Assembly (NCBI GenBank): GCA_043809645.1
Contig: JBDROX010000036.1
Location: 1,713 to 65,712 of the forward strand
Direction: 5' to 3'
DNA from: Candidatus Magasanikiibacteriota bacterium
GTDB taxonomy: Bacteria > Patescibacteriota > Patescibacteriia > Magasanikbacterales > UBA922
Length of the DNA stretch: 64,000 nucleotides
Shown piece after piece: positions 2,004 to 38,120 of the stretch; positions within the stretch are counted from its first letter, which is position 1, and every line of letters starts with the position of its first letter. Made by a program: the position numbers and the translations under genes. The notes beneath the pieces are model-generated. The model did no database searches. It was not told the DNA's origin and was given only the letters and a program-made list of their open reading frames with translations.

Positions 2004-3611
2004 TTATTTCACGCGAATAATGATATATCCATCATTTTCAAAAACTATTTCAAAGTCATTGGGCCTATGGGAGACAAAGTTTCTGAAATTTTCTGAAAGT
2101 GGACTAGTCTTCGAACTGAAGATATAGTCTGATTCAAAAATATTGTGCACAGCATGCTGTACAGCGTTAATCTGGTGCATTGTGCTTAGATCCATGCAAG
2201 CCTCTCTCTGGGGGCAATATAGGCCTCTGAGGATCAGATTATACCAGGTCCAGTAGAGATGCTGGTCATAGTTGTACATGAATACAGGATCAAATCCAGC
2301 AATATATTGAATGTCACTATTTTCAAAGAATAGGGGAGCAAAGGAACTCCAGTTCGTAAGGAAAACAGTCTTTCCTTTTGATACAATACTACTCAGCTCA
2401 TCAGTGGCCTCATAAAACTCCTTTTTCTTTTCTAGATCACCAACGGCAATGTTGTTATAAAATATGACAAGGTTTTTACTACAGAAAAAAGTAAGAATCG
2501 CCAAAATGAGAAGAGTAGGTATATTTTTTCTTCTCTTGCTTTGATTATTGATAACCTTAAATACATCATATTTTGATGCCTGCACAAACACATATACAGA
2601 AAGAAGAAATGTCATTGGTACCCAATATTCCACCATACGAGGAACTAACACTGTGGCTACAAGTGATAAAGAGCAGAACGTGAGTAAAACAAATGAATCC
2701 CCATCCAATTTTTTTTCTGAATGAAGGTAAAGAGCCAGAGAGGAGAAAAAAAGGAAAAGAGTAACTGTAATAATATTTCCAAGCATGATAGTAGAGAAGC
2801 TCATGGTTGCCAGTTCAGATCCACTGGGGAGAGTTATGCCGGCAAGTTTCAAATAGAAGATCTCGAATGTATGGACGAGGATAACGTGAGTATATCCAAT
2901 AGTTTGTGGATGCAGAATGAGTCCAAGGAGAACGCCACCAAATACTGATATGATGGGTCTCAGATCAACTATCTTCTTTTCATAATATATCGATATGCTA
3001 AAGAGAAGTGAAAGAAGGAGAAATGGCGCAATGAAGTTGTACATGAGGATGTAGAGCACCGAGAAGAAGAATGCCCAAACATACCTTTTCTTTGAAAGCA
3101 AGTAGAATCCTGCAATCATGAGAGCTATAGATATGACAAATGGTCTACCCAGAAGAATACGGAATGAGAAGATTGTGGATGATAGAAAAAAAAGAAGAGT
3201 TAAAAGAAAATTATGCTCCTTTAGTTTTTTCCACGCTATGAGATAGAAGAAAAGGAAAATAAGAGTAGCCTGAAGTGCACTTACAAGCTTGAGTGAGTTA
3301 ACTGGCCCTAGAAATCTATTTACTTGTCCTGTGATGAAGTGGTGGAGTACATACGGGTCTGCTGGTAGAGTGCTAAAGAAGTGGAATGCAATCCATGGTT
3401 TCACTACAGAAAACTTTCCACTCTCATACACTATTTGGCTATGTTTCGCATGATAGTATGCGTCCGAGCCATAGAGGCCCTCGTGAGCAAACTGTGCATA
3501 CCCAAAGATAGTGCAAAAAAAGAAAAACACCAATAGTGCTCGTACCAATGGTGATTTAAAGACTTTTTTAATTTTGACAGGCAGAAATATAGTGAAGAAT
3601 TGCCTAATCAT
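2004..3611 (-). CDS. large polytopic integral membrane protein (about 12 TM helices plus C-terminal soluble domain); GT-C-like or VirB6-like candidate
   Basis: 535 aa, many hydrophobic helices, first loop motif SDAYYHAK, about 150-aa C-terminal soluble domain; overlaps the next gene by 4 nt (operon). Confidence 0.4.
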   Translation of the reverse strand: MIRQFFTIFLPVKIKKVFKSPLVRALLVFFFFCTIFGYAQFAHEGLYGSDAYYHAKHSQIVYESGKFSVVKPWIAFHFFSTLPADPYVLHHFITGQVNRFLGPVNSLKLVSALQATLIFLFFYLIAWKKLKEHNFLLTLLFFLSSTIFSFRILLGRPFVISIALMIAGFYLLSKKRYVWAFFFSVLYILMYNFIAPFLLLSLLFSISIYYEKKIVDLRPIISVFGGVLLGLILHPQTIGYTHVILVHTFEIFYLKLAGITLPSGSELATMSFSTIMLGNIITVTLFLFFSSLALYLHSEKKLDGDSFVLLTFCSLSLVATVLVPRMVEYWVPMTFLLSVYVFVQASKYDVFKVINNQSKRRKNIPTLLILAILTFFCSKNLVIFYNNIAVGDLEKKKEFYEATDELSSIVSKGKTVFLTNWSSFAPLFFENSDIQYIAGFDPVFMYNYDQHLYWTWYNLILRGLYCPQREACMDLSTMHQINAVQHAVHNIFESDYIFSSKTSPLSENFRNFVSHRPNDFEIVFENDGYIIIRVK

Positions 3612-4291
3612 GCTTTGTGGATAATATTTTCTACAGCACCCCAGCTGCTCTCGCCAGTTTCTGGAATGAGAATAACAACATCATCTCCAGCATTTCCTTT
3701 ATAAAATGTTGCAGATGCTGTCAGGATCTTGTATGGTCTTCCTCCAAAAATAACAGACCAATTTCCGTTCTCATCAGAGACGAGCTCTCCTGTTACACGT
3801 TTTCTGTTTACCTGTTGGATTTGTTTATAGATAAATGAACCTCTATTTGTAATAGTGAGCTTCATGATGTCTCCCTCAACCAGCTTTGATTTACTTGCGT
3901 AGTTCGGTGGAACACTGTATTCCTCTCCATCTTGACCGATCATCTTCTCTCCGGTGAAGACGCCTTCGACAATACGTTCACCACTATCAAAAACTGAGGT
4001 TTCGGGTTGGTCACCAACCATCTTTCTCACTTTCTCACCACCTACAATTCGAAGGAGAGAATCTAGTTGATCCTTGATGCACAGAATACTTTTCTTCACT
4101 TCATCGAGGTCTACATCTTTTTCACTTACTTTTTCTTCTATTGATTCTCGTGTGTTGCCAAGGGTCAGAGGGTTCAGATTTAGACTGTCTTCGTCTAATT
4201 CTGAATTTTGAGTTGGTGGAAAAGTTGGAATATGTTTTCCTTTGAATAGGTCTTTTGCTTTGTCGTCAAGTACGCTATTGATATTGTCCAT
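3608..4291 (-). CDS. hypothetical soluble protein, acidic N-terminus, in operon with the VirB4-like ATPase
   Basis: 227 aa ORF, no TM helix, translationally coupled to the downstream membrane protein gene. Confidence 0.4.
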   Translation of the reverse strand: MDNINSVLDDKAKDLFKGKHIPTFPPTQNSELDEDSLNLNPLTLGNTRESIEEKVSEKDVDLDEVKKSILCIKDQLDSLLRIVGGEKVRKMVGDQPETSVFDSGERIVEGVFTGEKMIGQDGEEYSVPPNYASKSKLVEGDIMKLTITNRGSFIYKQIQQVNRKRVTGELVSDENGNWSVIFGGRPYKILTASATFYKGNAGDDVVILIPETGESSWGAVENIIHKA

Positions 4292-4331
4292 ACACTTTTC
4301 TGTTTATATTTGTTATTTGTTTGTATATTCC

Positions 4332-6899
4332 CTAAAGACTTGCTTCTATAGAGTCAGTATCTGCTTGTCCTTCTGACTCACCAAGCTTTGTCCTTTCCAT
4401 AATCTCTGACTCTACGATCATTTGGTCACGCCCATACTTGAGTCTGGAGAGCTGCTTAATGGCATTTCCAAGTTCTTTATTTCCTTGCATTGGTGGAAAT
4501 GTCTGCATGAGGAATGGTTTTGAAGCAGTATTATCAATTAGGAGTTTTGTATACCAGGAGAACATTGGGGCATTGAGTAGGTCGTACGCACCAAATGTTG
4601 GTGCAAACTCCTTTGCAAGAACCTCTGAATCATCTGGTCCAATGCGGGCAGAGAACATAGTACCAGCATTACCGAGGACTGCGTCACGGATACCAGACCT
4701 TCCTTTGTCGTCTGTCAGCTGACCCATGTATTGATGGGCAATGATAAGGTCTAGCTTATATTTTCGAGCCTCAGATAGGATAGTTGAGATAGAGTCAGTA
4801 ACAAAGTTCTGGAACTCATCTATATAGAGATAAAAATCTTTTCTATCTTCTTCTTCCTGATCAGCCCTAGCAAGGGCCGCCATCTGAAGCTTGGAAACAA
4901 TAATGAGTCCGAGTAGTTTGGCATTTACCTCACCTGTTTTTCCTTTTGCAAGATTCACGAGAAGTATCTTTTGATTATCCATAATATCACGGAAATCAAA
5001 ACCTGACTTTTGCTGACCCATGATGTTTCTCATCATTTCATTCTCTACGAAACGACCAACCTTGGAAATAAGGTAGCCAAGCATTTCTGATTTATGAAAG
5101 TCACTTGTTTTTGCCATTTCCTTCTCCCAGAATGCTCGGACGACTGGGTCTTTTAATTTTTTCAAATAGACTTTTACATAGTCATCATCTGTGAACATGC
5201 GTGGAATATCAATGATAGTCCCTGGGTTATCCAGGTCGGCCATGAGTGTGAGCATCACATTACGCATATTGTGCTCGAACATTGGTCCGATCATTTCCGG
5301 TGGAAAGAGTTTGTAGAAAATTGAGATCATCTCCTGAACCGCGAAGTCTTTCTGATCCTCACTCTTCGCCTCTAACATATTGAGACCAATAGGACGTTCT
5401 GTATCAGACGGATCGAAGATCACAACATCGTCAGCACGTTCTTTTGGTATATGACTGAGGATATACTCAACGAGGTCTCCGTGTGGGTCGATAACACAAA
5501 CTCCTTTTCCTTCATGAATATCCTGGATAGCCATTCTAGATACGAAGACAGACTTACCACCACCAGACTTACCAATAATGTACATGTGTCGCCTCCTGTC
5601 TCCTTCCTTCATGAAAACATTTGTTTTTGAACCCCTATAATCAACATATCCGAGGAGGAGGCCTTCTTTTGGAAGGTTTGATGGGGGTGGGGCTTTTCTT
5701 CCTGTGAGCCATTTGACGTTTGGTGCTTCTGTAGAATGGAGCGGAAGGTGCCAGAATGAGGCCATTTCATCTGTTGTCAGTAGGATCTTTCTCTTCTCAT
5801 CAAAACTCCTGTAGATGAAGTGGCGGATAAGACCAGTTTGCTTTTTTGGAACAATGGCTTGAAAACTATTTCCATATCGATACAGATTGTACTGCCCGAA
5901 GGAGCCTATGAGGTCATCTAGATGGAGCCTGGCAGCCTCTTCCTGATCAGCAACACTCAGAAGTCTAATAGTCACATCCATGCCACCACGACTCAGCTTT
6001 TCCTCAAATCCCTTTAGCATTTCTTCTTCCATACCCGAGAGCTGGTATGGTGTGCCATCTTTTCTTTTCTCAGGATTTTGGAGCGTTTCAGTGAATTCTT
6101 TTGATCCTTTTTGGAAAGCTCTCCCAAATGCACTTCTCTTTGCAATTTGCTCGAACTTCTCACCTTTTTTTATATCACGAACCATCGTTACACCCTGCTT
6201 TCTCCAAGTCTTCACTGCACTTCTGATCACGAACTGTATTGCCATGGAGCTGTTATTGTCCTGATATTTTGATAAGACATTTAGAATGGAAGCTAATGGG
6301 TCTGATTCCATTATTTTGTATGATTTGAAAGGGAAGACACCTTTTTGCTGGGTAGTAAGGTAGGCGCCAACAATTTTACTTTTTTCAGAAAAAATATTGT
6401 AATCCTGAATCTGGTCGATCTGTGCGTGTGGATGCTGTGCATTGATCTGCTGTTCCATGAACGATCGCATCTTATTCGGGATGTCTATGTAGAAATAGAT
6501 CAGACCACCTGTAGCAACTATTTCAAAAGACATGTGGTCATTTCTACCACCAAACCATCTTGAAAATCCTTTTTGTGCTCGGAGGGCTGCTACTGCAGAG
6601 AACAGCGTCTCTGTCATTCCTATTTCCTCCTTTATCTGCTCGAGTCTGTCATCTGTGCTTGCCTGTCCACCGGCTCCTTCTGACTTTCTCTCCTTTGGAA
6701 CGAGGATTTGGAGTACAGACCTGCCAAAGGCTTTGTTTGCTTTTCCACGGTTCTGAATGAGTGTTCGAACCAGGAGGAGTATCGCAAAAACAGTAAAGAC
6801 AATGATGAGAACAATGACAATCCAAAAAAGAAGATTCCCAATTCCAGAGGAATTTAAAAGGTTTGTTTGATTGAAACCAACAAAGAATTGGAAAAACAT
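4332..6899 (-). CDS. VirB4/TrbE/TraC-family type IV secretion-type P-loop ATPase with N-terminal TM helix (VirB3-VirB4-fusion-like layout)
   Basis: 855 aa; N-terminal TM; Walker A YIIGKSGGGKS near residue 445; IDPHGD; Walker B LYIDEFQNF; ARKYKLDLIIAHQYMGQL (the RK...Q motif of T4SS ATPases, AAA_10 / CagE_TrbE_VirB type). Confidence 0.55.
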   Translation of the reverse strand: MFFQFFVGFNQTNLLNSSGIGNLLFWIVIVLIIVFTVFAILLLVRTLIQNRGKANKAFGRSVLQILVPKERKSEGAGGQASTDDRLEQIKEEIGMTETLFSAVAALRAQKGFSRWFGGRNDHMSFEIVATGGLIYFYIDIPNKMRSFMEQQINAQHPHAQIDQIQDYNIFSEKSKIVGAYLTTQQKGVFPFKSYKIMESDPLASILNVLSKYQDNNSSMAIQFVIRSAVKTWRKQGVTMVRDIKKGEKFEQIAKRSAFGRAFQKGSKEFTETLQNPEKRKDGTPYQLSGMEEEMLKGFEEKLSRGGMDVTIRLLSVADQEEAARLHLDDLIGSFGQYNLYRYGNSFQAIVPKKQTGLIRHFIYRSFDEKRKILLTTDEMASFWHLPLHSTEAPNVKWLTGRKAPPPSNLPKEGLLLGYVDYRGSKTNVFMKEGDRRRHMYIIGKSGGGKSVFVSRMAIQDIHEGKGVCVIDPHGDLVEYILSHIPKERADDVVIFDPSDTERPIGLNMLEAKSEDQKDFAVQEMISIFYKLFPPEMIGPMFEHNMRNVMLTLMADLDNPGTIIDIPRMFTDDDYVKVYLKKLKDPVVRAFWEKEMAKTSDFHKSEMLGYLISKVGRFVENEMMRNIMGQQKSGFDFRDIMDNQKILLVNLAKGKTGEVNAKLLGLIIVSKLQMAALARADQEEEDRKDFYLYIDEFQNFVTDSISTILSEARKYKLDLIIAHQYMGQLTDDKGRSGIRDAVLGNAGTMFSARIGPDDSEVLAKEFAPTFGAYDLLNAPMFSWYTKLLIDNTASKPFLMQTFPPMQGNKELGNAIKQLSRLKYGRDQMIVESEIMERTKLGESEGQADTDSIEASL

Positions 6900-6914
6900 A
6901 TGTAAAAAAATCAG

Positions 6915-7502
6915 TTACTTCTTTGGGAAGTACTGATTTTTGAGTGACATAATCTTGTCTGCACGTATCTTCGCTTCTTGTTCTAAGAAAAATATATTAA
7001 TACCTGGCAAAATTTTCAGCCATTCCAGGAGGAGTTTAAAAATACTTTTTACCTTACCCTTCGCAGAACTCAAAATGGCTCGAATTTTGAAAGCCGTTTC
7101 TTCACCTTTTATCTTGAATTCTTGTTGCTGCACTGGTGTGAGTTCCTTGAATGCATCAGCGAGACCATCTTCCATAATTTTCTCAACTTTCATTGTGATC
7201 TCATCTCTAACCTGAGGAACAGCTGTAAGTTTTTTCTTTTTTGTCCGTCTCAATTTCTTTCTCAGAGAATCAATTCCTTGGTCTATAGTTTCAACTTTTT
7301 GTACAGAAGGATCTATTTCTGGGGAGACTTCTGGAACTCTTTGTACTTCTGGTCGTGAAATTTCTGGTATTGTTTCTGAAAGTGGCAGGGTAGTTTCTGA
7401 TATTGGAGATATTAGAGGAGGAACAGCTTCTACTGGGGCTGCCTGAGATGTGTTAAAGTCAAGAACCGGAATCTCTTTTGGGTTTGGGTTTGTTGTAGCC
7501 AT
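6915..7502 (-). CDS. hypothetical protein, Pro/Glu-rich N-terminus, coiled-coil, C-terminal hydrophobic segment
   Basis: 195 aa ORF immediately upstream of the ATPase gene (16-nt gap). Confidence 0.4.
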   Translation of the reverse strand: MATTNPNPKEIPVLDFNTSQAAPVEAVPPLISPISETTLPLSETIPEISRPEVQRVPEVSPEIDPSVQKVETIDQGIDSLRKKLRRTKKKKLTAVPQVRDEITMKVEKIMEDGLADAFKELTPVQQQEFKIKGEETAFKIRAILSSAKGKVKSIFKLLLEWLKILPGINIFFLEQEAKIRADKIMSLKNQYFPKK

Positions 7503-7693
7503 AAGTCACGATGTACAAATCACAAGACACATATCAAAATTAATACAGCATATTGGAGGCATATATTTGATATGTGGAGTGTATTACGTGTTATATAGAA
7601 TAGTATACCAGAAGCAAAGAAAATTGACTATAAGTTTAGTAGAAGTAGTGAAAAATTAAACAGCATTGTGAAACGTACACATGCAATATAATG

Positions 7694-8548
7694 TTACTTT
7701 TCAAAAAAGATGGGAATTTCCAGTGCATCATCATATTTTGGAAGGTCAGATGGATTATCTTTCTGTAGAATAAGTGTTCCACGGTCGTAGAGTGCTGGCA
7801 CCTCGAAATGAAGTTCCCCCTTGAACGGAACGAATTCTTCTGTCATCCATTCATCCTGCGCAGTAATATACCCTTCTGCAATGATTTTACCATCCCAGTC
7901 TGTGAGAATGACAGGTGCATCACCCTCGAAATACCATACTCCTCTGGCTTGTCCAGTGATCTGAAGAGGGCTCGAAATCCCAGTGTTTGGTCGTGGAGAA
8001 TCAATTCGTATACTATCAGCTTTTTCAAGCTCATTTCCAATATTTTCTGTAAATGTTTCCCTACCATGACTACAGCTTCTCGGATAGCTTTCCATGATTG
8101 GATTTTCAGCCTCAACGCAGTCAGAGAATGTTAAAATAGTGGAAGAATCATCTGAGTCAATACTACTTTGAATCAAGTTTTTTGAGAGAAAAAAGAAAAC
8201 AACAATTCCCAGAATAAATAGGCCGAGAAGTACTAGCATCATTTTTTTCTTCAAGTCAATCTCTTTTTTTGTCATCGACCTGAGGTCTTTCTCATGTTTT
8301 TTCTCCAGAGATGCTCCCAAAGCAACGCCGATCGGTAATCCAAGAGCTGGACCTAGGGCAATATTACCAATTGCAATGCCAAAAGGTATGCCAATTGCAA
8401 TGCCAATTGCAATGCCAAGGCTCATGTAGTGACCTTTTGGATGTTTTCCTGTCCTCTTAAATTCCTCCTGTTTTATTTTGAATGCTGGTATAGATACTAT
8501 TCCAATAATAATTATCATTGCGAGAATGAGTAACTGCGCTGTATACAT
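7694..8548 (-). CDS. membrane-anchored protein with Gly-rich TM region and C-terminal Gmad2-like immunoglobulin-like domain
   Basis: 284 aa; GIAIGIAIGIPFGIAIGN repeats; CVEAENPIMESYPRSC motif; SPRPNTGISSPLQITGQARGVWYFEGDAPVILTDWDGKIIAEG...WMTEEFVPFKG matches the Gmad2 Ig-like fold. Confidence 0.55.
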   Translation of the reverse strand: MYTAQLLILAMIIIIGIVSIPAFKIKQEEFKRTGKHPKGHYMSLGIAIGIAIGIPFGIAIGNIALGPALGLPIGVALGASLEKKHEKDLRSMTKKEIDLKKKMMLVLLGLFILGIVVFFFLSKNLIQSSIDSDDSSTILTFSDCVEAENPIMESYPRSCSHGRETFTENIGNELEKADSIRIDSPRPNTGISSPLQITGQARGVWYFEGDAPVILTDWDGKIIAEGYITAQDEWMTEEFVPFKGELHFEVPALYDRGTLILQKDNPSDLPKYDDALEIPIFFEK

Positions 8549-8557
8549 ACTGTTTAC

Positions 8558-9037
8558 TTATTGGATAATAATATTAGTGCTACCTGGAAGTCGCTCTCTA
8601 ATAATCTTGAGATCCTGCTCTGAATATGGATTGCCAGAGAGGCGAAGCCATTTCAATTTTTTTAGATTTCCGATCTCATGTGGAAGTCCTGTAATTCCGT
8701 TGTTTGAGAGGTCGAGGAGTTCGAGATCTTCTAGCTGTCCAACTTCTGCCGGGACGCCTGTCATAATATTGTCACTCAGATCAAGAACTTTTAGGTTTTT
8801 AAGCTTATTAATTTCTGCTGGGATGGCACCGCCAATTTCATTTCCAGAAAGGTCAAGCTCTTCAAGCTTTTTATTCTTGAAAACATCGGCAGGGATTTCT
8901 TTTAGTTCCTGATTGCTGAGATCAAGTTTGAGGCTATTTGCAATTTCGACATCTCCGTCTGTTTCAGCAGTATCATTCAGACTACAGCCAGTGAATAGGA
9001 CGGTGATAGCGATGAGAGGGAGGAGGTATTTTTTCAT
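8558..9037 (-). CDS. leucine-rich-repeat lipoprotein
   Basis: Start chosen at MKKYLLPLIAITVLFTGCS (lipobox LFTGC); at least five LxxLxLSxNxIxGxxP LRR units. Confidence 0.65.
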   Translation of the reverse strand: MKKYLLPLIAITVLFTGCSLNDTAETDGDVEIANSLKLDLSNQELKEIPADVFKNKKLEELDLSGNEIGGAIPAEINKLKNLKVLDLSDNIMTGVPAEVGQLEDLELLDLSNNGITGLPHEIGNLKKLKWLRLSGNPYSEQDLKIIRERLPGSTNIIIQ

Positions 9038-9047
9038 ATATTTTTTA

Positions 9048-9251
9048 TTACGATTTTGGTACGATGCGAGCGAAATACATGCCAAGGAGTACAAGTACCG
9101 TACCAATATACACAACATAATTTGACACTGTATATGATTTTGTTATTATCGAGCCAAGACGGTAAAGAAGGAGAGCAAGACCAATAATAAAAAGGGCAAT
9201 ACCAACTTTTTTAAATTTTACGGGTACGAAACCTGTCGGCTCATTTGGCAT
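9048..9251 (-). CDS. small two-TM membrane protein (VirB2/VirB3-like size class; function unknown)
   Basis: 67 aa, two hydrophobic helices. Confidence 0.35.
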   Translation of the reverse strand: MPNEPTGFVPVKFKKVGIALFIIGLALLLYRLGSIITKSYTVSNYVVYIGTVLVLLGMYFARIVPKS

Positions 9252-9262
9252 ATGAGAAGGTG

Positions 9263-9493
9263 TTACGAATCTTTTTTAAGCAATAAATAGACTCCATAGG
9301 GGAAGAGGGTGAATATGCCAAGAACACCAATAAGACCAACAAAGCCAAGGATAATATTTATCACATGACTAAATGTCGCTACCTCCGGCTCTCTTCCAGT
9401 GATAACATTTGAAATAGAGAATATAACAAGGGATCCAATAATAAGGATGAATGGAAGAGAGATAAAGAGTGGTCCTTTAGTTGTTTTTTTCAT
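9263..9493 (-). CDS. small two-TM membrane protein (VirB2/VirB3-like size class; function unknown)
   Basis: 76 aa, two hydrophobic helices, stop adjacent to the DUF2164 gene. Confidence 0.4.
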   Translation of the reverse strand: MKKTTKGPLFISLPFILIIGSLVIFSISNVITGREPEVATFSHVINIILGFVGLIGVLGIFTLFPYGVYLLLKKDS

Positions 9494-9748
9494 CTATTTT
9501 TGTTTCAAAAGATCTAAATCAATTTCAATATCATCGGAGTGCTGGCGGAGTGCGGCAGATGCATTATCTATACCTTCATTATAGATGTGCTCTCCAATAT
9601 TGTCTAGGAAAAAATCTAGAATTTCTTCAGCAGCGATCACACCGATCTGCTCATCTCGCTCATTATCAAAAAAACTAATAATTTTTTCTATAGAAGTTTC
9701 TCTTTTATCTTTTGGAAGAAAATCCCATTTTCGTTTGATTTCGTCCAT
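9494..9748 (-). CDS. DUF2164-family small protein
   Basis: 84 aa; FFDNERDEQIGVIAAEEILDFFLDNIGEHIYNEGIDNA resembles the DUF2164 consensus. Confidence 0.45.
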   Translation of the reverse strand: MDEIKRKWDFLPKDKRETSIEKIISFFDNERDEQIGVIAAEEILDFFLDNIGEHIYNEGIDNASAALRQHSDDIEIDLDLLKQK

Positions 9749-9764
9749 ATGTGTCGGAAGTTTT

Positions 9765-10823
9765 TTATTGGATAATCACAGGAATCTCGAGTGCATCGTC
9801 ATTTTCTCGCAGGTCAGATGGGTTGTCTTTCTGGAGTATCAGTGTTCCTTTGTCACTATAGCTTTCTTGTTTTTCAAACGTGAGTGTTCCTTTGAATGGG
9901 ACGAAGTCCTCTGTCATCCATTCTCCTTGTGCCACACCAAACCCTTCTGCAATAATGAGTCCGTCCCAGTTTGTAAGAATGATAGGGAAGTCTCCTTCAA
10001 AGAACCATGTGCCACGGGCTTCTCCTGTGATTTGGAGTGGGCTAGAGATGGTTGCGTTTGGGCGAGGGGAGTAGACACGGATGATATTCGTCAAAGCTCA
10101 TGATTCATAGTCAAAAAAGATACTTTCATTGCGTCCCATCTTTAGCAAAACTGAATGTTCAAATTTTTCTACTGTATCTACTACTTCATTATTGGACATC
10201 AGTCCTCTTACAATTTGTTCGTCCTGGATTTGCCAATCTGAAGGATATTGAAAAAAAATACCGAAATTTTCATTTGTATATGAAATCATCTTATCGCTCG
10301 TAGAAGTAATTTTTACCACAGACGAGCACTGACCATCCAGGCATTCGCATGGATACTTCCTATACTTATCACACTCAGAACAATCGCAATCACTTCCCAG
10401 CTTGCAACTAGATGAATAGCTGGCACTCTCTTCTGGGCCTGGAGAGTGGTTCCACATCGGGCAGACGACTACACATCCATTATTTCTGCAGGATGCACTG
10501 TACGGGCAGTTCGATTGGATCGCATATTCCATTGGTACACTACAATCCGAAGATACTTCGCAAGTACTTCCTACAGGTTTTTGAATACTTTCTGTATAGG
10601 CTCTATCTCCATGACGACATTGCCGAGGGTAGCTCTCCATGATCGGGTTTCCAGCGTTCACACATTCTTCGAAGGTGTTTACTACTCCAGAAGGCACCTG
10701 AGGAGCAGAATTATCTCTCCCTTCTCGGACTTTTGGCATGATGAGGAAGAATATAATAAAGACTATGAGAATTCCAGGGAGTATGACAACAATAAAGTTT
10801 TTTATTGTTGGTTTGGTATTCAT
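9765..10823 (-). pseudogene. paralog of the 7694-8548 Gmad2 protein, interrupted by one in-frame TGA (ORFs 10098-10823 and 9765-10094 are in the same frame)
   Basis: N-terminal ORF has TM plus NPIMESYPRQC plus a Cys-rich region; after the stop the frame continues ...DYES*ALTNIIRVYSPRPNATISSPLQITGEARGTWFFEGDFPIIL (Gmad2 domain) collinear with the intact paralog. Confidence 0.5.
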
Positions 10824-10828
10824 AGATT

Positions 10829-11029
10829 TTATTTTTTGCTAGTCCTCTCCACGATTAACAGAAAGTCTACTTTTGCCGTGGCTCCCATGAGTTGGAATGT
10901 TGGTTTTACATTTGGAATGACAGAAAGAACTTCTCCATCGAGATTATTGAGGAACTGCTCCAAATAATCTTGCATATTATCACTCTTGACATCTATACGA
11001 TGCACTTTATATTTCTTTTTTTCTTCCAT
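10829..11029 (-). CDS. hypothetical small protein (first gene of the minus-strand array)
   Basis: 66 aa ORF, 5 nt upstream of the next gene. Confidence 0.3.
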   Translation of the reverse strand: MEEKKKYKVHRIDVKSDNMQDYLEQFLNNLDGEVLSVIPNVKPTFQLMGATAKVDFLLIVERTSKK

Positions 11030-11323
11030 ATGTTTCTATTAAAAATAGTAAGTAGTCTATTTGCTGTTTAGTCTCATAAAAAACATCGACGAAAACATCA
11101 TAGCAGAAATAAGAAATATGGCTCCGTCAGAGGTGTTTCCTTCAAAAAAATAATTAATACTTGGGAGTAAGAATGCGAAAGCGGAGATGAGTCATGGATA
11201 TGGTCCATGAAACCAAGATTATTTTTCTCTGTTCATATGCATATATTAAGAAAAAAATTATGTTAATCCTATTCAGAGTAAATATGCTACGAAAATTCTT
11301 TTCATCTCTTACTACTAAGCTCT

Positions 11324-11554
11324 CTACAATTTTAATTCTTCAATACTTTTATCTAAAGCCTCTTCAATCTCACCCAATGGATCATCAGGTTTTGTGTAAT
11401 CAGGAGGATATACTTTTTCAATGATTTCCTCCAAATCTTTTATAGGATCAGCAGGTTTAGTGTCCTCAACTAATTCATCAATGAAATCCTTCTTTTTTTC
11501 TTTAATTTCTGCATCGGGTGTTTGGGATTTTATCTCTCCCTTCTGTTTTTTCAT
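11324..11554 (-). CDS. hypothetical small acidic protein
   Basis: 76 aa, Glu/Asp/Lys-rich, 4-nt overlap with the cysS start. Confidence 0.3.
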   Translation of the reverse strand: MKKQKGEIKSQTPDAEIKEKKKDFIDELVEDTKPADPIKDLEEIIEKVYPPDYTKPDDPLGEIEEALDKSIEELKL

Positions 11555-12918
11555 AGAACTATATTTTTTATTATTTGCTTTCCTTGATGGTCTTCAATAC
11601 TATACCCAAGCTTTTCAAGCTTATCACGCAATCTATCAGACTCCTCAAAATTCTTCTCATCTCTTGCCTTCTGTCTCTGATCCAGAAGTCCCTGCACTTC
11701 TTCAGGAATAGCAACGTCTCCTTCATGAGAAATGAGGCCGAGGCCGAGGATTTTGTCGAACTTGGTGATCATCTCTTGATTTATGGCTTTCTCCTTCAGT
11801 CCTTTTGACAGAGCAGCAAGTGCCTCTGCAGTATTCAGATTATCTGATAGTGCATCGAAGAATGCCTTCTCCACAAGTGGATCTCCTGGCGCATCTTCTG
11901 GAAGGTCTTTTATTTTTCTTCTGAGATTCTTCAGCCCTTGCTCAGCAGCCTCTATAGCTTCCCAAGAGAACGTGAGCTGCTTACGATAGTGCACCTGCAG
12001 GAGGAAGAATCGATAGGCTAGGGGAGTGAGCCCTTTTTCTTCGAGAGTTGCTAGTGTGAGGAAATTATTTTCTGACTTTGACATTTTATCCTTTTCTGTC
12101 AGGAGGAACTCACCATGCATCCAAACATTCACCCATGGTTTTTTCCCAGTTGCAGCCTCGCTCTGCGCGATTTCATTACTGTGATGCACTGGAATATGGT
12201 CGATGCCACCACAGTGAATATCGAACTGCTCGCCAAGATATTTCGTAGCCATAGCAGAGCACTCTATATGCCAGCCTGGAAATCCTTTTTTCCCAAAAGC
12301 ATCCCATTCCATTTGGCGCGCTCTACCATCCTTAGAAAATTTCCAAAGAGCAAAGTCATGTGCATTTTTCTTTTCACCAATACCCACTCGAGCACCTGCC
12401 TCCAGATGTTGCTTGTCGAGCTGTGCGAGCGCACCATAGTCGTCTATAGTTGTCGTATCAAAATAGATACCGTCAGATGTTTCATAGGTGTGTCCGCCAT
12501 CAATAAGTTTTTGTACGAGATTAATCTGTTCCTGAATATTGTCTGTAGCTTTGCACCAGATGGTTGGCTCTAGAATATTGAGCGCTGCAATGTCATTTTT
12601 AAAGGCCTCTGTGTAGAACTCTGCAATCTCCCATGCTGTCTTTCCTTCACGCTTCGCACCCTTCTCCATTTTATCTTCTCCACTGTCAGCATCATCTGTC
12701 AGATGACCAACATCTGTGATATTCATCACATGATTGACGTCATATCCTTTGTATTTGAGCATTCGACGCAGAATATCTTCGAACACATATGTCCTCAGAT
12801 TTCCCAGATGGGCATAGTGATACACAGTTGGGCCGCAGGTATAGAGGCCGACCTGTTTTCCCTGAATAGGTACAAATTCTTCTTTCTCCCTTGTTCTGGT
12901 ATTGTAAAAATTGAGCAT
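11551..12918 (-). CDS. cysS: cysteinyl-tRNA synthetase
   Basis: 455 aa; CGPTVYHYAHLGN (HIGH region), KMSKS, CysRS-specific zinc-binding cysteines. Confidence 0.9.
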   Translation of the reverse strand: MLNFYNTRTREKEEFVPIQGKQVGLYTCGPTVYHYAHLGNLRTYVFEDILRRMLKYKGYDVNHVMNITDVGHLTDDADSGEDKMEKGAKREGKTAWEIAEFYTEAFKNDIAALNILEPTIWCKATDNIQEQINLVQKLIDGGHTYETSDGIYFDTTTIDDYGALAQLDKQHLEAGARVGIGEKKNAHDFALWKFSKDGRARQMEWDAFGKKGFPGWHIECSAMATKYLGEQFDIHCGGIDHIPVHHSNEIAQSEAATGKKPWVNVWMHGEFLLTEKDKMSKSENNFLTLATLEEKGLTPLAYRFFLLQVHYRKQLTFSWEAIEAAEQGLKNLRRKIKDLPEDAPGDPLVEKAFFDALSDNLNTAEALAALSKGLKEKAINQEMITKFDKILGLGLISHEGDVAIPEEVQGLLDQRQKARDEKNFEESDRLRDKLEKLGYSIEDHQGKQIIKNIVL

Positions 12919-13069
12919 AAAAATTTTTAAAATGATTGGGTTTATTATAGTGTGAATAGGGGAGAGTGTAAAGCATACGGATAATATGGTATAATCGAAT
13001 TAATCAAAATTCTTTGGGGGTTATAAAATATTTTGAATTTATAATTTGGAATTTTGAATTTATTTTATT

Positions 13070-14200
13070 ATGTCATTATTTTCTCACAATCAAGACGCAT
13101 ATCTCGGTATAGACATTGGTGCACATGGAATGAAGTGTGTCGAATTGCACAAGACCAAGGGTCGTCCACAGCTCTGGACGTATGGTATTGCATCAGAACC
13201 ATTGGATATTCATCCCCCTGTGCCTGTTGAGAAGACCCCAGAGCAGCTCATGAAAGAAACAAAGTCTGATGTCCTGGGAGAAGGGCAACAAACTGGTGTG
13301 GCAGTGCCACAGCCGGATGATCCACGTGTAAAGAAGTATGCAGCCATGCTCAAGAACCTTATAGAACAATCAAAGGTTACAACCAGGCAGGCTACAGCAA
13401 GCCTTCCGATTTCAGAAGTTTTTCATACTATGCTTACACTTCCTGTGGTTGAAAAGAAAGATGTGGAAGGAATCATCCAGGCAGAGATTCAGAAGTTTCT
13501 ACATAGGCCTGTGGATGAGATGCAGATCATGCACCAGATGGTGCCAACGGAAAATAAGAATCACATGAGAGTGCTCGTCACTGCTGCCACGAAGAGTATT
13601 ATCTCTTTTTATACAGCCATTTTTCAAAAGGCTGGACTAGAGCTTCGAGAACTCGAGACAGAAGCATTTGCACTAGAGAGATCACTTGTTGGTAGGGACA
13701 CATCAAATGTTTTTATTGTAGACATTGGATCAGAACGCACAAATTTTTTTGTGATTTCAGAAAGTCTCCCAATTATTCATAGAAGTATCAATATTGGAGG
13801 GGACAGACTGACAGCGCATCTCCAAGAAATTCTTGGAGTTGACGCCATAATAGTGGATGAACTCAAGCGAGACATGTCTCGGCTTGGTTCCAGTGATATT
13901 ACATCAGATATCATGGAGCGTATTATCAACCCGATTACAAAAGAAGTAAAGTACAGTCTTGATGTATTTCTAAGACAGAACGGGGAATCAAAGCGTCCTG
14001 AGAAAATTGTTCTCACAGGAGGGTCAAGTGTTATTCCTTATATTGCAAAACGACTCACTGATGAGTTCCAAATAAAGGCGTTTGTCGGAGATCCGTGGGC
14101 ACGTGTTGTACACCAGCAGGGACTCAAGCCTGTCCTAGATGCAATTGGACCAAGGATGGCAGTTAGCATTGGTTTAGCGCTACGCAATATTGTAGAATAG
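13070..14200 (+). CDS. pilM: type IV pilus assembly ATPase-like protein PilM (actin-like)
   Basis: 376 aa; LGIDIGAHGMKCV, VDIGSERTNFFV, INIGGDRLT actin-fold motifs. Confidence 0.75.
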   Translation: MSLFSHNQDAYLGIDIGAHGMKCVELHKTKGRPQLWTYGIASEPLDIHPPVPVEKTPEQLMKETKSDVLGEGQQTGVAVPQPDDPRVKKYAAMLKNLIEQSKVTTRQATASLPISEVFHTMLTLPVVEKKDVEGIIQAEIQKFLHRPVDEMQIMHQMVPTENKNHMRVLVTAATKSIISFYTAIFQKAGLELRELETEAFALERSLVGRDTSNVFIVDIGSERTNFFVISESLPIIHRSINIGGDRLTAHLQEILGVDAIIVDELKRDMSRLGSSDITSDIMERIINPITKEVKYSLDVFLRQNGESKRPEKIVLTGGSSVIPYIAKRLTDEFQIKAFVGDPWARVVHQQGLKPVLDAIGPRMAVSIGLALRNIVE

Positions 14201-14262: not shown

Positions 14263-14646
14263 ATGGCAAAAAATAAAATACAAGTCCATATCATCGAAGA
14301 TGACACGTTTCTAGTGAATATTTATAAAACAAAGTTTGAGATGGAAGGATTTAGTGTTTCAGTTTCAGAAAATGGAGAGGCAGGTCTTGCTGCTGTAAAG
14401 AAAAAACAGCCAGATATCATTCTTTTGGATATTCTCATGCCAAAGATGGATGGATTCACTGTACTAAAGAAACTAAAGGCAGATAAGAATTTGAAAGACG
14501 TTCCCGTAATACTCCTCACAAATCTTGGGCAGAAGAATGATGTAGAGAAAGGGATTGATTTGGGAGCGGTTGACTACCTCATTAAAGCACATTTTAAGCC
14601 ATCGGAAACTGTGGCAAAAGTCAAAAAAGTTTTAAAACTGAAATAA
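14263..14646 (+). CDS. stand-alone response regulator receiver domain (CheY-like)
   Basis: 127 aa; phospho-acceptor context DIILLDILMP, conserved K near the C-terminus. Confidence 0.8.
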   Translation: MAKNKIQVHIIEDDTFLVNIYKTKFEMEGFSVSVSENGEAGLAAVKKKQPDIILLDILMPKMDGFTVLKKLKADKNLKDVPVILLTNLGQKNDVEKGIDLGAVDYLIKAHFKPSETVAKVKKVLKLK

Positions 14647-14649: not shown

Positions 14650-15105
14650 ATGTTCAAGCTTACTATGAGAAATACAAAGAGTGGATTTACACTCATCGAG
14701 CTCCTTGTTGTTATTGCAATCATTGGATTGCTCTCAACCCTTGCGGTAGTTGCTCTTGGTTCTGCCAGACAGAAAGCCAGAGACTCACTCAGGCTCTCTG
14801 ACCTAAAGGAAATGCAAGTGGCACTCGAGTTGCATTATACTGACAAGAGTTCATACCCTGTACAAGCTGAAGTAGTCACACTAGGAAGTGGAAATTTTGC
14901 ATGTTTAAATATCGATGGTTTTAGTGCTTCTGGTTGTGCCAATCCATACAAAGGAAATATTCCTCAAGATCCAGGTGAGTCAGTCTATCAATATATTTCA
15001 AGTGATGGTTCTTCCTATGCAATATCTGCAATCCTAGAGGGTGAGATCGGCGGCTTGAATGATGGAACAGTGCAGGCATCTCCATCAGGAATATCAAATC
15101 AATAG
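14650..15105 (+). CDS. type IV pilin / pseudopilin (N-methylation prepilin motif)
   Basis: KSG|FTLIELLVVIAIIGLL class III leader peptide. Confidence 0.8.
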   Translation: MFKLTMRNTKSGFTLIELLVVIAIIGLLSTLAVVALGSARQKARDSLRLSDLKEMQVALELHYTDKSSYPVQAEVVTLGSGNFACLNIDGFSASGCANPYKGNIPQDPGESVYQYISSDGSSYAISAILEGEIGGLNDGTVQASPSGISNQ

Positions 15106-15170: not shown

Positions 15171-15938
15171 GTGAACACTATGGAAATACTATTTTCATCT
15201 TTTTTGTTTCTCATCGGGCTCATTCTTGGCAGTTTTTTGAATGCCTGGATCTATAGTCTAAGAGAAGAAATCAGTATCCGGGGCAGGAGATCTATGTGCC
15301 CAGAGTGCAAGAAAGATATTGCTTGGTATGATAATATTCCGGTGCTCAGCTTTTTTCTGTTGCGTGGAACATGTCGACCATGTAAGAATAGTATTTCTTG
15401 GCAATACCCAATCGTAGAGCTCTTCATGGGAATTGTATTTGTCTTTTTAGGCAGCTTTCATCAGCTAGACGTCTTACTCATCGCCAAGGATGGATTTATC
15501 ATCTTCTTCCTTACACTCATATTTGTATACGATCTGCGATATCAGCAGATTCCAGATATTGCTACTATTGCTCCTGCCACTGCAGTATTCATAGTTACAC
15601 TCCTCATGTCACCACTCAGCTGGGCGAGTATGTTGATTGGAGTCGGTGTAGGGGCAAGCTTTTTTCTTCTCCAATTCTTCATTTCAAAAGGGCGTTGGAT
15701 TGGGGCAGGAGACATTAGTCTTGGGGCATTCATGGGTGTGATTCTCGGTTGGCCACTCACTTTTTTTGCTCTCGTCCTCGCGTATATTGGAGGGGCGGTC
15801 CTTAGTGTGGTATTGATTGCACTCAAGAAAACTACAAGAAAAAGTAAAGTACCATTTGGAACATATCTAGCAATAGCAACATGTATCTGTATGTTTTGGG
15901 GTGCGGAAATTGTGAGTTGGTATATTGGACTGATGTAA
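15171..15938 (+). CDS. pilD: prepilin peptidase (A24 family)
   Basis: 255 aa; N-terminal CPEC...CRPC zinc motif and polytopic peptidase domain. Confidence 0.8.
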   Translation: MNTMEILFSSFLFLIGLILGSFLNAWIYSLREEISIRGRRSMCPECKKDIAWYDNIPVLSFFLLRGTCRPCKNSISWQYPIVELFMGIVFVFLGSFHQLDVLLIAKDGFIIFFLTLIFVYDLRYQQIPDIATIAPATAVFIVTLLMSPLSWASMLIGVGVGASFFLLQFFISKGRWIGAGDISLGAFMGVILGWPLTFFALVLAYIGGAVLSVVLIALKKTTRKSKVPFGTYLAIATCICMFWGAEIVSWYIGLM

Positions 15939-29330: not shown

Positions 29331-32003
29331 TTGAGGCGTCTTATGAACTTCTACCAACAGACAATAGAAGCAGTTTTTGATCATTTTAAGGTTGATGAAA
29401 AACAAGGTTTGAGTGGTTTAAAAGTGAAGAAAGCGCTGAAGATACATGGCAAGAACGAGCTTCCAAGAGCACGAAAGAAAACAACAAACTTGAAAATCTT
29501 TTTGAATCAATGGAAAAGTCCATTGCTTTTTATTTTGTTGGTTGCTGGCTTCATTAGCGGGCTTCTAGGTGAGTACACTGACATGACAGTTATCCTGCTC
29601 ACTGCAGGGATCAATGCTGCCATTGGATACATTCAGGAGAATAAAGCAAATAGTGCACTAGAAAAACTTCAAGAAATGGTTGCATATCAGGCCACAGTGA
29701 TGAGAGATGGAAAAAAGCTTCAGATAGAAAGTAGTAATCTTGTGCCTGGTGATATTCTTTTCCTAGAGGCTGGAGATAAAATTCAGGCAGATGCAAGAAT
29801 CATCTCCACGGTTGATTTCGAAGTACACGAGGCAGCTCTCACAGGAGAGTCACAGGAAGTGAAGAAGAGCCGAGGCGTGATCAAAGATGAAATCGGCGTT
29901 GCTGATAGATACAACACTGTATTCCGAGGGACTACTGCAGTGAATGGACACGCTGTCGTTGTTGTCATTAATACTGGTGAGGAAACAGAGATAGGGAAGA
30001 TTGCCACAATGGTCAAAGATATTAAAGATGAGGAAACACCTCTTCAGAATCAGCTCAAAAAATTAAGTCAAAAGCTTGGTGCGATCGTCCTTGTCATATC
30101 TTTTCTCATTTTCTTGCTTGGAATTTTTGTCAGCAAGGATACAACAATATTTGAAATGTTTGAGACGGCAGTCGCTATTTCAGTTGCTGCCATTCCTGAA
30201 GGACTCATCATATCCCTGACAGTCATACTTGCAATTGGTATGCAGTTTATCCTGAAACGGAACGCACTTGTTCGACGACTTGTGTCTGCAGAGACACTAG
30301 GGAGTGTCAGTGTTATTTGTACAGACAAGACAGGAACTGTCACAGAAGGAAAAATGAGTGTCACAGAACTTGTTACGAAATCAGAACATCTGGATGTTGA
30401 TGAGCTGAGAGTACTGAATTCAAAAAAGGAGGATAGGCATGCTGAAGCATTATTGGCACTTCGCATTGGCACGCTCTGCAACAACGCAAGTCAGAACAGT
30501 GAGAATATATTTGTTGGTGATACTACAGAGACGGCTCTGGCAGAAATAGGATTCTCTGCTGGCATAAATAAAGTGGATTTGGAGAAAACAGTGAGGCGTA
30601 TTGACGAAATTCCTTTTAGTAGTAGAGAGAAGTACATGGTGACGCTTCATCATGCATCAGACGCTGCTTTCATATATGCGAAAGGTGCTCCAGAAGTCAT
30701 TCTTTCAAAGTGCAGTTACTTGAGTACAGCAGGAGGGAATATAAAACTTGAAAAAAAAGAAAAAGATTGGCTTGAGGATGAAATCAGAAAACTTACTGCA
30801 AAAGGATTGCGAGTACTTGCACTTGCGTACAAGGGTACAGATTTATCTTTGGTAGATCTGGGTTCAGAAGATGAAGAAAATCTAACTTTTGCAGGTATAG
30901 TTGGCCTTTCTGATCCAGTTCGTACAGATGTTAAACAAACAATTGAGGTTGCCCGGCAAGCGGGTATTCGAGTTATAATGGTAACAGGTGACCATGCAAT
31001 GACAGCGCGTGCGATTGCAAGCCAAATTGGACTGCCTTCAGATGATCAGAATGTTGTACGTGGTGATGAGCTGCAAAAGATGAGTGAGAAGAAACTCCTG
31101 CAAGTAGTAACACATGCAAGTGTCTTCGCACGCGTAGATCCAAGGGATAAAATTCGGATTGTGAATGCTCTAAAGAAGAATGGGGAGGTTGTTGCTATGA
31201 CAGGGGATGGCGTGAATGATGCTCCAGCGCTCAAAGGAGCAGACATTGGTGTTGCAGTCGGATCTGGCACTGATGTTGCAAAGGAAGTTGCTGAGCTTGT
31301 GATTCTTGATGATAAATTCCCAACTATTGTTGCAGCTGTAGAGGAGGGGAGAACAATTTATCAAAATATCAAGAAAGTTGTTCTCAAATTACTTTCTGAC
31401 AGTTTTACAGAAGTTATTCTTATCTCAGGCAGTCTCATTGCTGGACTTCCTCTTGCACTCCTTCCTGTTCAGATACTCTGGGTGAATCTCATTGAAGATT
31501 CTTTTCCAAATATGGCGCTTGCATTTGATAAGGGTGACAAGGAAAATATGAAAGATCCTCCACGCAAGAAAGGGGTCTCACTAATTGACAAGGAAATGAA
31601 GGTAATGATTGCTATTGTGACTATTGTTCACGATATTGGGCTCCTTACCGCCTATATCATTCTTTCTAAGATTGGTATGGATATTGCTCTTGTCCGTACT
31701 ATTATATTTGCAGCGCTCGCCACGGATTCACTGATTATTATTTATCCAATACGTAGCATGCGGCACATGCTCTGGCAGATCAATCCTTTTGATAACAGGT
31801 ATCTTACAATGAGTGTACTCCTTGGATTGGGATTGTTAATCCTTAGCATTTATGCACAACCTCTTCAATACTTACTTAAAACAATCCCACTGACGGCAGA
31901 GCATTGGCTCCTAGTGATACTTCTTGGTATAATCGACATTATACTTATCGAAGCCATTAAGGGAATTTTTCTTGTTAAAAATCATCATAAATTAAGTGAA
32001 TAA
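29331..32003 (+). CDS. P-type cation-transporting ATPase (P2-type, Ca2+/Mg2+-ATPase-like)
   Basis: 890 aa; ICTDKTGTVT phosphorylation site, TGES, MVTGD, GDGVNDAPAL, 10 TM. Confidence 0.9.
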   Translation: MRRLMNFYQQTIEAVFDHFKVDEKQGLSGLKVKKALKIHGKNELPRARKKTTNLKIFLNQWKSPLLFILLVAGFISGLLGEYTDMTVILLTAGINAAIGYIQENKANSALEKLQEMVAYQATVMRDGKKLQIESSNLVPGDILFLEAGDKIQADARIISTVDFEVHEAALTGESQEVKKSRGVIKDEIGVADRYNTVFRGTTAVNGHAVVVVINTGEETEIGKIATMVKDIKDEETPLQNQLKKLSQKLGAIVLVISFLIFLLGIFVSKDTTIFEMFETAVAISVAAIPEGLIISLTVILAIGMQFILKRNALVRRLVSAETLGSVSVICTDKTGTVTEGKMSVTELVTKSEHLDVDELRVLNSKKEDRHAEALLALRIGTLCNNASQNSENIFVGDTTETALAEIGFSAGINKVDLEKTVRRIDEIPFSSREKYMVTLHHASDAAFIYAKGAPEVILSKCSYLSTAGGNIKLEKKEKDWLEDEIRKLTAKGLRVLALAYKGTDLSLVDLGSEDEENLTFAGIVGLSDPVRTDVKQTIEVARQAGIRVIMVTGDHAMTARAIASQIGLPSDDQNVVRGDELQKMSEKKLLQVVTHASVFARVDPRDKIRIVNALKKNGEVVAMTGDGVNDAPALKGADIGVAVGSGTDVAKEVAELVILDDKFPTIVAAVEEGRTIYQNIKKVVLKLLSDSFTEVILISGSLIAGLPLALLPVQILWVNLIEDSFPNMALAFDKGDKENMKDPPRKKGVSLIDKEMKVMIAIVTIVHDIGLLTAYIILSKIGMDIALVRTIIFAALATDSLIIIYPIRSMRHMLWQINPFDNRYLTMSVLLGLGLLILSIYAQPLQYLLKTIPLTAEHWLLVILLGIIDIILIEAIKGIFLVKNHHKLSE

Positions 32004-38020: not shown

Positions 38021-38120
38021 GGAGGGAAATCGGATTCGAACTTTATGATTATTTTTTTGAAATTCATGTTATAATATAACCAATAATGAAATTAAAACTA
38101 TTTTATGTCTAAAAAAAATA

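Follow-up and report, generated by a model that had tools for sequence, protein, structure and literature searches.

The DNA analysed here is a 64,000-nucleotide stretch (the window) of contig JBDROX010000036.1 from a Candidatus Magasanikiibacteriota bacterium, and our subject is a gene in it for an ATPase related to those of type IV secretion systems (T4SSs). An initial annotation, made from the letters alone, had placed an open reading frame (ORF) for a VirB4-like ATPase at 4332-6899. These coordinates proved exact, with the gene on the minus strand; a plus-strand reading of the same interval was ruled out, its frame being full of stops. The ORF is not a chance frame, because NCBI holds an identical protein (P0001, 100% identity, from a Candidatus Magasanikbacteria metagenome-assembled genome [MAG]) and because 3,738 homologues of the 855-residue product were found at E<=1e-5. 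P0001 is named [quoted passage not shown] and the window gene is an already annotated, ordinary member of a very large family of type IV coupling proteins (T4CPs). The features of the gene and its product are as follows:

4332..6899, minus strand: the ATPase ORF (transmembrane anchor, DUF8128 N-domain and T4CP-type ATPase), complete, 855 aa, ATG start
6756..6845, minus strand: single N-terminal transmembrane anchor, residues ~19-48, the sole segment with a Kyte-Doolittle value above 1.6
5664..6728, minus strand: N-terminal, putatively cytoplasmic domain, residues ~58-412, DUF8128 (PF26449), with a predicted fold like that of the VirB4 N-domain
4440..5624, minus strand: C-terminal T4CP-type nucleotide-binding domain, residues ~426-820, from Pfam, hhalign and Foldseek
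5550..5582, minus strand: Walker A, YIIGKSGGGKS, residues 440-450, read in the translation
5475..5492, minus strand: IDPHGD, residues 470-475, read in the translation
4977..5372, minus strand: all-alpha insertion between Walker A and Walker B, residues ~510-641, from the AlphaFold secondary structure
4803..4835, minus strand: Walker B, FYLYIDEFQNF, residues 689-699, read in the translation
4716..4769, minus strand: ARKYKLDLIIAHQYMGQL, residues 711-728, an R-K...Q...QL motif after Walker B, read in the translation

Membrane anchor and motor domain

The hydrophobic helix that had been seen at about residues 20-45 is present, at residues ~19-48, where the 19-residue Kyte-Doolittle mean reaches 3.39; the protein has no other hydrophobic segment. 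AlphaFold predicts a helix at residues 18-58, and a comparable N-terminal hydrophobic segment was found in 35 members of a panel of 37 diverse relatives (32-67% identical to the window protein) that we used to judge conservation. No charged residue occurs in positions 1-18, and positions 45-65 hold five lysines or arginines and neither aspartate nor glutamate. By the positive-inside rule, this pattern would place the N-terminus outside and the remainder of the protein in the cytoplasm.

The motifs reported earlier (Walker A, IDPHGD, Walker B and ARKYKLDLIIAHQYMGQL) likewise all exist in the ORF. Invariant across all 37 relatives are G443, G446, G448 and K449 of Walker A, D694 and E695 of Walker B, and R712, K713, Q723 and Q727 of the motif that follows Walker B, which aligns with GRKAGLRVVAGLQSTSQL of TrwB. 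Given the invariance of K449, D694, E695, R712, Q723 and Q727, the window protein is very probably an active ATPase, as judged from its residues.

As to the family of the motor domain, the best profile matches were to coupling proteins. These were PF02534 (T4SS-DNA_transf; 1.9e-12, 47.3 bits against a gathering threshold of 20.1, residues 426-763), PF10412 (TrwB_AAD_bind; 3.4e-10, 39.8 bits against 20.5, residues 430-773) and PF12696 (TraG-D_C; 25.1 bits against 22, residues 689-773), whereas neither CagE_TrbE_VirB (PF03135) nor AAA_10 (PF12846) in Pfam, nor TIGR00929 (VirB4_CagE) in NCBIfam, matched the window protein even at E<=1. At the level of sequence, therefore, the assignment to VirB4 fails. 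What stands of it is that the protein is a P-loop ATPase of the T4SS superfamily (VirB4/VirD4/FtsK/HerA) with its motor in the C-terminal half. The top NCBIfam models were TraD, VirD4-like CD1115, TrbC and CedD, and every equivalog or subfamily cut-off was missed by a wide margin; we therefore place the protein in the broad T4CP family and in no named subfamily. The panel of relatives gave the same picture, with TrwB_AAD_bind matching 36 of the 37 and AAA_10 only one, and with TraD models matching all 37 and TIGR00929 eight, these weakly. A profile of the family searched against PDB sequences found TrwB (1.8e-8), DotL (1.8e-6) and then HerA, with no VirB4 chain among the matches, and hhalign aligned the family to TrwB residues 115-480 over 325 columns (97% probability, E 1.2e-10).

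Paralogue tests on elements that carry both kinds of ATPase decisively favoured the T4CP over VirB4. On the proteins of R388 the C-domain profile scored 40.0 bits for TrwB and 0.3 bits for TrwK (the VirB4 of R388). The T4CP-position protein of an Embleya plasmid scored 290 bits and the VirB4-like protein of the same plasmid 26.8 bits; on a Bacillus subtilis plasmid the corresponding values were 172 and 0.5 bits.

The predicted structure of the domain points the same way. AlphaFold sets helices 514-641 between strands 492-495 and 645-649, inside the PF10412 match, and the resulting insertion may be the counterpart of the all-alpha domain of TrwB. Intact Walker A and B and R/Q motifs, together with an all-alpha insert in a RecA-like domain, are the T4CP signature. 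The protein resembles TrwB, VirD4, TraD and TraG in its RecA-like domain, inserted all-alpha domain, DEF-type Walker B, R-K...Q...QL motif and N-terminal membrane anchor.

Could the protein instead be a helicase of the HerA/FtsK kind or a defence NTPase with a superficial likeness to T4SS ATPases? It belongs to the same P-loop superfamily as FtsK/SpoIIIE and HerA. DUF87, the HerA central domain, gave a partial Pfam match above its gathering threshold (2.1e-8), HerA structures were among both the Foldseek and the PDB-profile matches, and some relatives had weak nSTAND or AAA_22 P-loop matches. The DUF87 match, however, is confined to 85 residues at the P-loop (436-520), and such matches score below the T4CP models, which span ~340 residues and so cover more of the protein. 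FtsK_SpoIIIE (PF01580) had no Pfam match in the window protein at E<=1, and the full-length HerA model of NCBIfam (NF040819, cut-off 970 bits) reached only E 0.014. Unlike FtsK/SpoIIIE and HerA, the window protein lacks a multi-transmembrane N-terminus with linker, a gamma domain and a HAS barrel. Nor does a nuclease or other defence partner adjoin the gene, which behaves as a conserved single-locus core gene across the phylum and not as a patchy island gene. We regard this explanation as very unlikely.

The N-terminal DUF8128 domain

Between anchor and motor lies a domain that Pfam calls DUF8128, a name that a literature search found in no paper. PF26449 is precomputed for P0001 and for all 120 relatives among the matches listed, and a profile of the N-domain that we built scores relatives at 310-420 bits. 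Searched alone against 1.84 billion representatives, the N-domain matched 1,696 clusters (50% identity) at E<=1e-3, always at the N-terminus, in proteins that when complete are usually ~800-870 aa long. The length of about 430 aa first given for this domain holds only if the transmembrane segment is counted; after the helix, some 380 aa remain (residues ~58-425).

The similarity to VirB4 resides in the predicted fold of the domain. The AlphaFold model of the full-length protein has a pLDDT of 78 and that of the N-domain alone a pLDDT of 81.5 and a pTM of 0.80. The best Foldseek match of the full-length model was TrwK/VirB4 of R388 (E 2.7e-14, ~900-945 columns, both domains), although the two superposed poorly as wholes; after it came TrwB (TM 0.62 on the target), Cagbeta, HerA and DotL, by the C-domain only. 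With the N-domain as query, the top 14 matches were all TrwK chains and the next E-value was 1.3e-2. Because the full-length alignment is collinear and the N-domain query has no P-loop, the match should be one of N-domain to N-domain. DUF8128 is thereby predicted from the models to share the fold of the VirB4 N-domain, and the window protein on that account resembles VirB4 in layout: the comparison with VirB4 structures proposed in the initial annotation returned TrwK/VirB4 (R388; PDB 7o42, 8rtd) as the top match, with its ~400-aa N-domain followed by an ATPase of ~400 aa. Yet the window protein and TrwK/VirB4 have no detectable sequence similarity in either domain. For DUF8128 and the VirB4 N-domain, none was detected with a hidden Markov model (-2.8 bits) or hhalign (0.2%), and the N-domain profile scored below 0 bits on all VirB4-like proteins tested.

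These results bear on the view that the protein is a true assembly ATPase of the VirB4/TraC/TrbE kind, its helix standing in for VirB3, and the motor of a locally encoded apparatus. In its favour are the top Foldseek matches, an N-domain fold with no match but the VirB4 N-domain, a Walker A placed at ~445 of ~850 aa, much as in TrwK (~455 of 823), and the weak TIGR00929 matches noted above. Against it stand the absence of any VirB4, CagE or AAA_10 match in the window protein and the paralogue tests, in which VirB4-like proteins of plasmids scored 0.5-27 bits and T4CP-position proteins 172-290. VirB3 is a separate protein in VirB4 systems, whereas the window protein has its own transmembrane helix; this single helix carries no Pfam match to VirB3 or PrgI, and the gene is not encoded with VirB3, VirB6 or VirB8, there being no VirB6, VirB8 or pilin cluster in the window. 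No VirB3-VirB4 fusion turned up when 3,035 Patescibacteria genomes were surveyed, and the same survey placed patescibacterial VirB4 in a separate monophyletic clade, encoded in T4SS clusters (PMC12102498). The suggestion that the anchor mimics such a fusion accordingly found no support. By sequence, the VirB4 reading is largely refuted, and we consider it very unlikely.

Relatives and gene neighbourhood

Outside Patescibacteria, the closest relatives that we found are encoded on plasmids of monoderm bacteria and archaea. A tblastn search of plasmids with the C-domain returned 547 records whose annotations speak of T4SS DNA-binding or TraM-recognition proteins, with Bacillus, Streptomyces, haloarchaea and Sulfolobus among the hosts; the N-domain found Bacillus and haloarchaeal plasmids. 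On the plasmid NZ_CP108778 of Embleya (Streptomycetaceae) the gene order is PrgI (VirB3-like), a Mom-like protein, a VirB4-like ATPase (models AAA_10 and TraC_F_IV), an 812-aa homologue of the window protein, a Replic_Relax relaxase and an NlpC/P60 hydrolase. That homologue shares 28% identity with the window protein over residues 90-802 (BLASTP 2e-71; hhalign 3e-69, both domains). A 27.5-kb B. subtilis plasmid (NZ_CP154917) encodes an 885-aa "DUF87 domain-containing protein" (hhalign 1.1e-54, both domains), followed by Replic_Relax, conjugal transfer genes and a VirB4-like ATPase. In the haloarchaeal plasmid NZ_CP135526 (8887-13132), just after the gene for a 1,105-aa conjugal transfer protein, DUF8128 has a gene of its own (391 aa), in overlap with the start of a T4CP gene (1,026 aa), whereas in the window protein the two domains are fused. 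None of the Embleya, B. subtilis and haloarchaeal homologues appears to have been studied experimentally.

From these three contexts it follows that DUF8128 plus T4CP fills the place of the coupling protein in conjugation systems of monoderms and archaea. This reading fits the derivation of the patescibacterial T4SS from the MPF-FATA class (PMC12102498). The proteins in the T4CP position of these plasmids share both domains and their order with the window protein, at 25-28% identity over ~700 residues. They differ from it in being plasmid-borne and in adjoining genes for a Replic_Relax relaxase and a VirB4-like ATPase, which the window gene does not.

Within Patescibacteria the gene is widespread. 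A scan of one genome per species gave at least 600 loci, and the best 80, which we kept, are 39-75% identical to the window protein over its full length. They come from all major lineages of Patescibacteria sampled: Magasanik-, Uhr-, Falkow-, Komeili-, Buchanan-, Doudna-, Staskawicz-, Portnoy-, Berkel-, Moran-, Peregrini-, Peri-, Woese- and Levybacteria as well as Saccharibacteria. Several loci (L005, L006, L008, L019, L050, L071 and others) belong to MAGs labelled "uncultured Gammaproteobacteria," "Bdellovibrionales," "Methylomirabilota" or "Bathyarchaeia"; the gene content around them is patescibacterial, and these taxon labels therefore look wrong. Some Patescibacteria have two full-length paralogues, in tandem (L051) or separated by a few genes (L046), and the long forms carry a C-terminal extension of ~240-290 aa. 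Short and long paralogues, each with both domains, also occur at loci labelled Saccharibacteria. On a larger scale, Quinonero-Coronel et al. counted 5,713 homologues of VirD4-type T4CPs in 2,918 of 3,035 Patescibacteria genomes and found relaxases to be almost absent (PMC12102498).

The patescibacterial T4SS is required for epibiotic growth. Genetic evidence exists for Southlakia epibionticum, whose essential T4SS was described by Wang et al. (2023) without a recognisable coupling protein (PMC10633639). Outside its T4SS locus (SEML1_0006-0019) this organism has two proteins with the layout described here (PMC10633639 supplement). One, SEML1_0142 (1,019 aa, P-loop domain 381-800), was essential at all time points of a transposon-sequencing experiment, as was the gene for a 139-aa protein that precedes it (PMC10633639 supplement). 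Both SEML1_0142 and its paralogue SEML1_0293 are T4CP-like proteins in which the P-loop or T4CP domain begins at ~380-400 and, like the window protein, they are encoded away from the T4SS locus; at 1,019 and 921 aa they are longer than the window protein (855 aa). A statement in PMC12102498 that the t4cp homologue of S. epibionticum is non-essential fits SEML1_0293, not SEML1_0142, which is essential in Table S1 of PMC10633639.

We turn now to the neighbourhood of the window gene, the relevant features of which are:

6915..7502, minus strand: UP, a conserved upstream partner of 195 aa, its stop 15 nt before the ATPase start codon
3608..4291, minus strand: DN, a conserved downstream partner of 227 aa, its start 40 nt past the ATPase stop codon
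2004..3611, minus strand: a polytopic membrane protein of 535 aa, its start overlapping the DN stop (ATGA)
13070-14200, plus strand: PilM, first of a type IV pilus group that begins 150 nt from the divergent cysS
14263-14646, plus strand: stand-alone response-regulator receiver of the pilus group
14650-15105, plus strand: GspG/PilA-like pilin of the pilus group
15171-15938, plus strand: prepilin peptidase of the pilus group

UP and DN are candidate partners of the ATPase. By tblastn, the C-terminal ~95 aa of UP have counterparts immediately before the ATPase gene at 32 related loci, and ORF clustering places UP at 28; the UP of a complete 1.23-Mb genome shares 56% identity with that of the window. 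For DN, the C-terminal ~120 aa recur on the downstream side of the ATPase gene at 28 related loci, at some of them beyond one intervening gene. In UP a Pro/Glu-rich N-terminus precedes the conserved, helical C-terminal part, and in DN an acidic N-terminus does so. Neither protein had a Pfam, NCBIfam or PDB sequence match, matches to FliH (E 0.005) and RTX (E 0.02) having been dismissed as compositional. The short junctions (15 nt, 40 nt and ATGA) and the lack of any terminator-like site between the UP, ATPase, DN and 535-aa genes suggest co-transcription. The 535-aa membrane protein, which had no family match and no counterpart in 82 related loci, is probably co-transcribed, though it is not a conserved neighbour. 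Synteny in ABY1-type genomes comprises CysS nearby (17 loci), a UP of ~190 aa directly upstream (28-32), the ATPase, a DN of ~210 aa (28) and then a dnaX-like gene (23). In other classes of Patescibacteria a different small gene lies directly upstream, c5 in 15 loci and c27 in four; as remote homologues of UP these were rejected by hhalign (probability at most 0.3%), and the analogy with UP is therefore one of position only.

Otherwise the window is an ordinary stretch of patescibacterial chromosome, with genes for CysS, PilM, pilin, prepilin peptidase, LigA, GatA, Lgt, FtsW, MurG, Nramp, a P-type ATPase, a MurC-like ligase, a DEAD helicase, BipA, IscS/NifU, ClpB, GltX, FtsQ-like and FemAB-like proteins and five tRNAs. 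We scanned every window ORF of 150 aa or more, together with small ORFs near the ATPase gene, for T4SS components and found none; the scanned ORFs were of housekeeping or type IV pilus type or were unannotated. The ATPase had been described as the only large one in an array and as the likely motor of a putative apparatus. The scan revealed no such array and no apparatus genes around the ATPase, and ClpB and the P-type ATPase are also encoded in the window.

Some further observations on the window may be recorded. The coding strand switches at ~12918-13070, genes from 2004 to 12918 being all on the minus strand and those from 13070 to ~22450 on the plus strand, and the switch coincides with the minimum of the cumulative GC skew. 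A replication origin at this site (~13 kb) was considered and rejected, matches to the DnaA box being at chance level and unclustered there. On the minus strand, ORFs of 109 aa (9765-10094) and 241 aa (10098-10823) abut in different frames and together approximate an expanded paralogue of a 284-aa Gmad2-domain protein (7694-8548, minus strand); both the pair and the 284-aa protein have an "NPIMESYPR.C.HG" motif and, at the C-terminus, a Gmad2 Ig-like domain, with a Cys-rich insert between. A frameshift, a misassembly or a genuine split of the gene could account for the pair. Between the Gmad2 genes, 8558-9118 (minus strand) encodes a 186-aa leucine-rich-repeat protein with a lipoprotein-like N-terminus (...LFTGCSL...), which may be a surface or adhesion protein. 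Directly after the P-type cation ATPase gene, 31996-32577 (plus strand) encodes a member of the Translin family (PF01997, 2.9e-21), a family that is mainly eukaryotic and archaeal. Finally, GC content dips to 0.34 at 38001-40000, against ~0.40 elsewhere, and a 264-aa ORF at 38121-38915 has no Pfam match.

A probable coupling protein of the patescibacterial T4SS

On balance we favour the view that the gene encodes a T4CP of the VirD4/TraG/TrwB family, of the subtype found in monoderm and archaeal conjugative elements, and that it probably serves as ATPase and substrate receptor of the patescibacterial T4SS. The single N-terminal helix tethers the ATPase to the cytoplasmic membrane, where, by analogy with TrwB, it would form a hexamer and use ATP to hand or push substrate through the T4SS channel. 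The VirB4 N-domain docks its ATPase on VirB3 and VirB8 in the inner-membrane complex of R388 (compare the titles of PDB entries 7o41 and 8rtb), and DUF8128 could by analogy be a module for docking to membrane partners. In Patescibacteria the gene would be a vertically inherited chromosomal core gene, located away from the virB4 cluster and with no relaxase, often in a small operon with two conserved genes (UP and DN here), and its product would serve a T4SS encoded in trans, as substrate receptor or motor, the substrate being DNA or protein.

Several points weigh against this view. The 64-kb window contains no VirB4, VirB3/PrgI, VirB6, VirB8, VirB2 or relaxase; the T4CP-type linkage to relaxase and T4SS genes seen with the Embleya, Bacillus and haloarchaeal plasmid homologues is absent from it. 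Unlike genes for T4CPs of the TrwB type, the window gene is chromosomal, phylum-wide and, it would seem, vertically inherited, with no adjacent relaxase or T4SS gene. Its product has one transmembrane helix, compared with at least two in VirD4-type T4CPs, and a ~350-aa DUF8128 between anchor and motor occurs in none of the five described T4CP architectures (PMC7434980). Of the 5,713 T4CP homologues counted in Patescibacteria, just 148 have virB4 nearby, and the survey's authors allow for exaptation (PMC12102498). SEML1_0293 (921 aa, PF10412 at 402-719) is non-essential while the T4SS is essential (PMC10633639 supplement); either it or SEML1_0142 may be the orthologue of the window gene. The VirB4-like fold comes from AlphaFold models for which the input alignment held sequences of 66-79% identity, and it has no support at the level of sequence. 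The hexamer, the ATPase activity, the partners and the substrate proposed here are inferred.

The principal alternative, which we think possible though distinctly less probable, is that the protein descends from a T4CP and was exapted in Patescibacteria to work without a VirB4 machine. Such a membrane-anchored translocase could pump DNA or protein in an uptake pathway with type IV pilus and competence proteins, could act in handling of chromosomal or other DNA, or could work with UP and DN alone. The gene is indeed orphaned among housekeeping genes, its conserved neighbours (UP, DN and the dnaX-like gene) are not T4SS genes, and PilM, a pilin and prepilin peptidase are encoded at a distance of 6-9 kb. 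More genomes have T4CP homologues (2,918) than have VirB4 (2,417), the homologues being seldom near virB4 and without a relaxase (PMC12102498), one paralogue is dispensable in S. epibionticum though its T4SS is essential, and VirD4-like T4CPs of some elements work with type IV pili or other partners (PMC12857230). No positive evidence, however, points to any alternative partner, and every full-length homologue from outside Patescibacteria that we inspected lies in a cluster of the conjugation type. Since the T4SS is near-universal in the phylum (PMC12102498), partnership with a T4SS encoded in trans is the simpler reading. Moreover, deletion of comEC in S. epibionticum abolishes competence and leaves the cells viable; DNA uptake alone therefore cannot explain the essential paralogue.

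For the window itself the result is mainly corrective, replacing the VirB4 label and removing the local secretion apparatus. For the family, DUF8128 accompanies a T4CP motor not only in Patescibacteria but also in Bacilli, Actinomycetes and haloarchaea, a distribution that bears on the divergence of VirB4 and T4CPs, and its predicted VirB4-like fold suggests a docking role that can be tested. We tentatively raise the idea, which is more speculative than likely, that DUF8128-containing T4CPs have kept the N-domain of a full-length VirB4-like ancestor, as a living intermediate between the VirB4 and T4CP families, that they persist on conjugative elements of Firmicutes, Actinomycetes and archaea, with the two domains fused or in neighbouring genes, and that they became fixed as one or two chromosomal core genes of Patescibacteria, of which at least one paralogue is an essential motor of the epibiotic life-style. 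If so, that paralogue and its small upstream partner would dock on the T4SS by way of the VirB4-like domain, and the "missing coupling protein" of the essential patescibacterial T4SS would be present after all, encoded elsewhere in the genome. The difference between SEML1_0142, which is essential, and SEML1_0293, which is not, offers an experimental handle on whether these orphan ATPases drive the T4SS of Patescibacteria.

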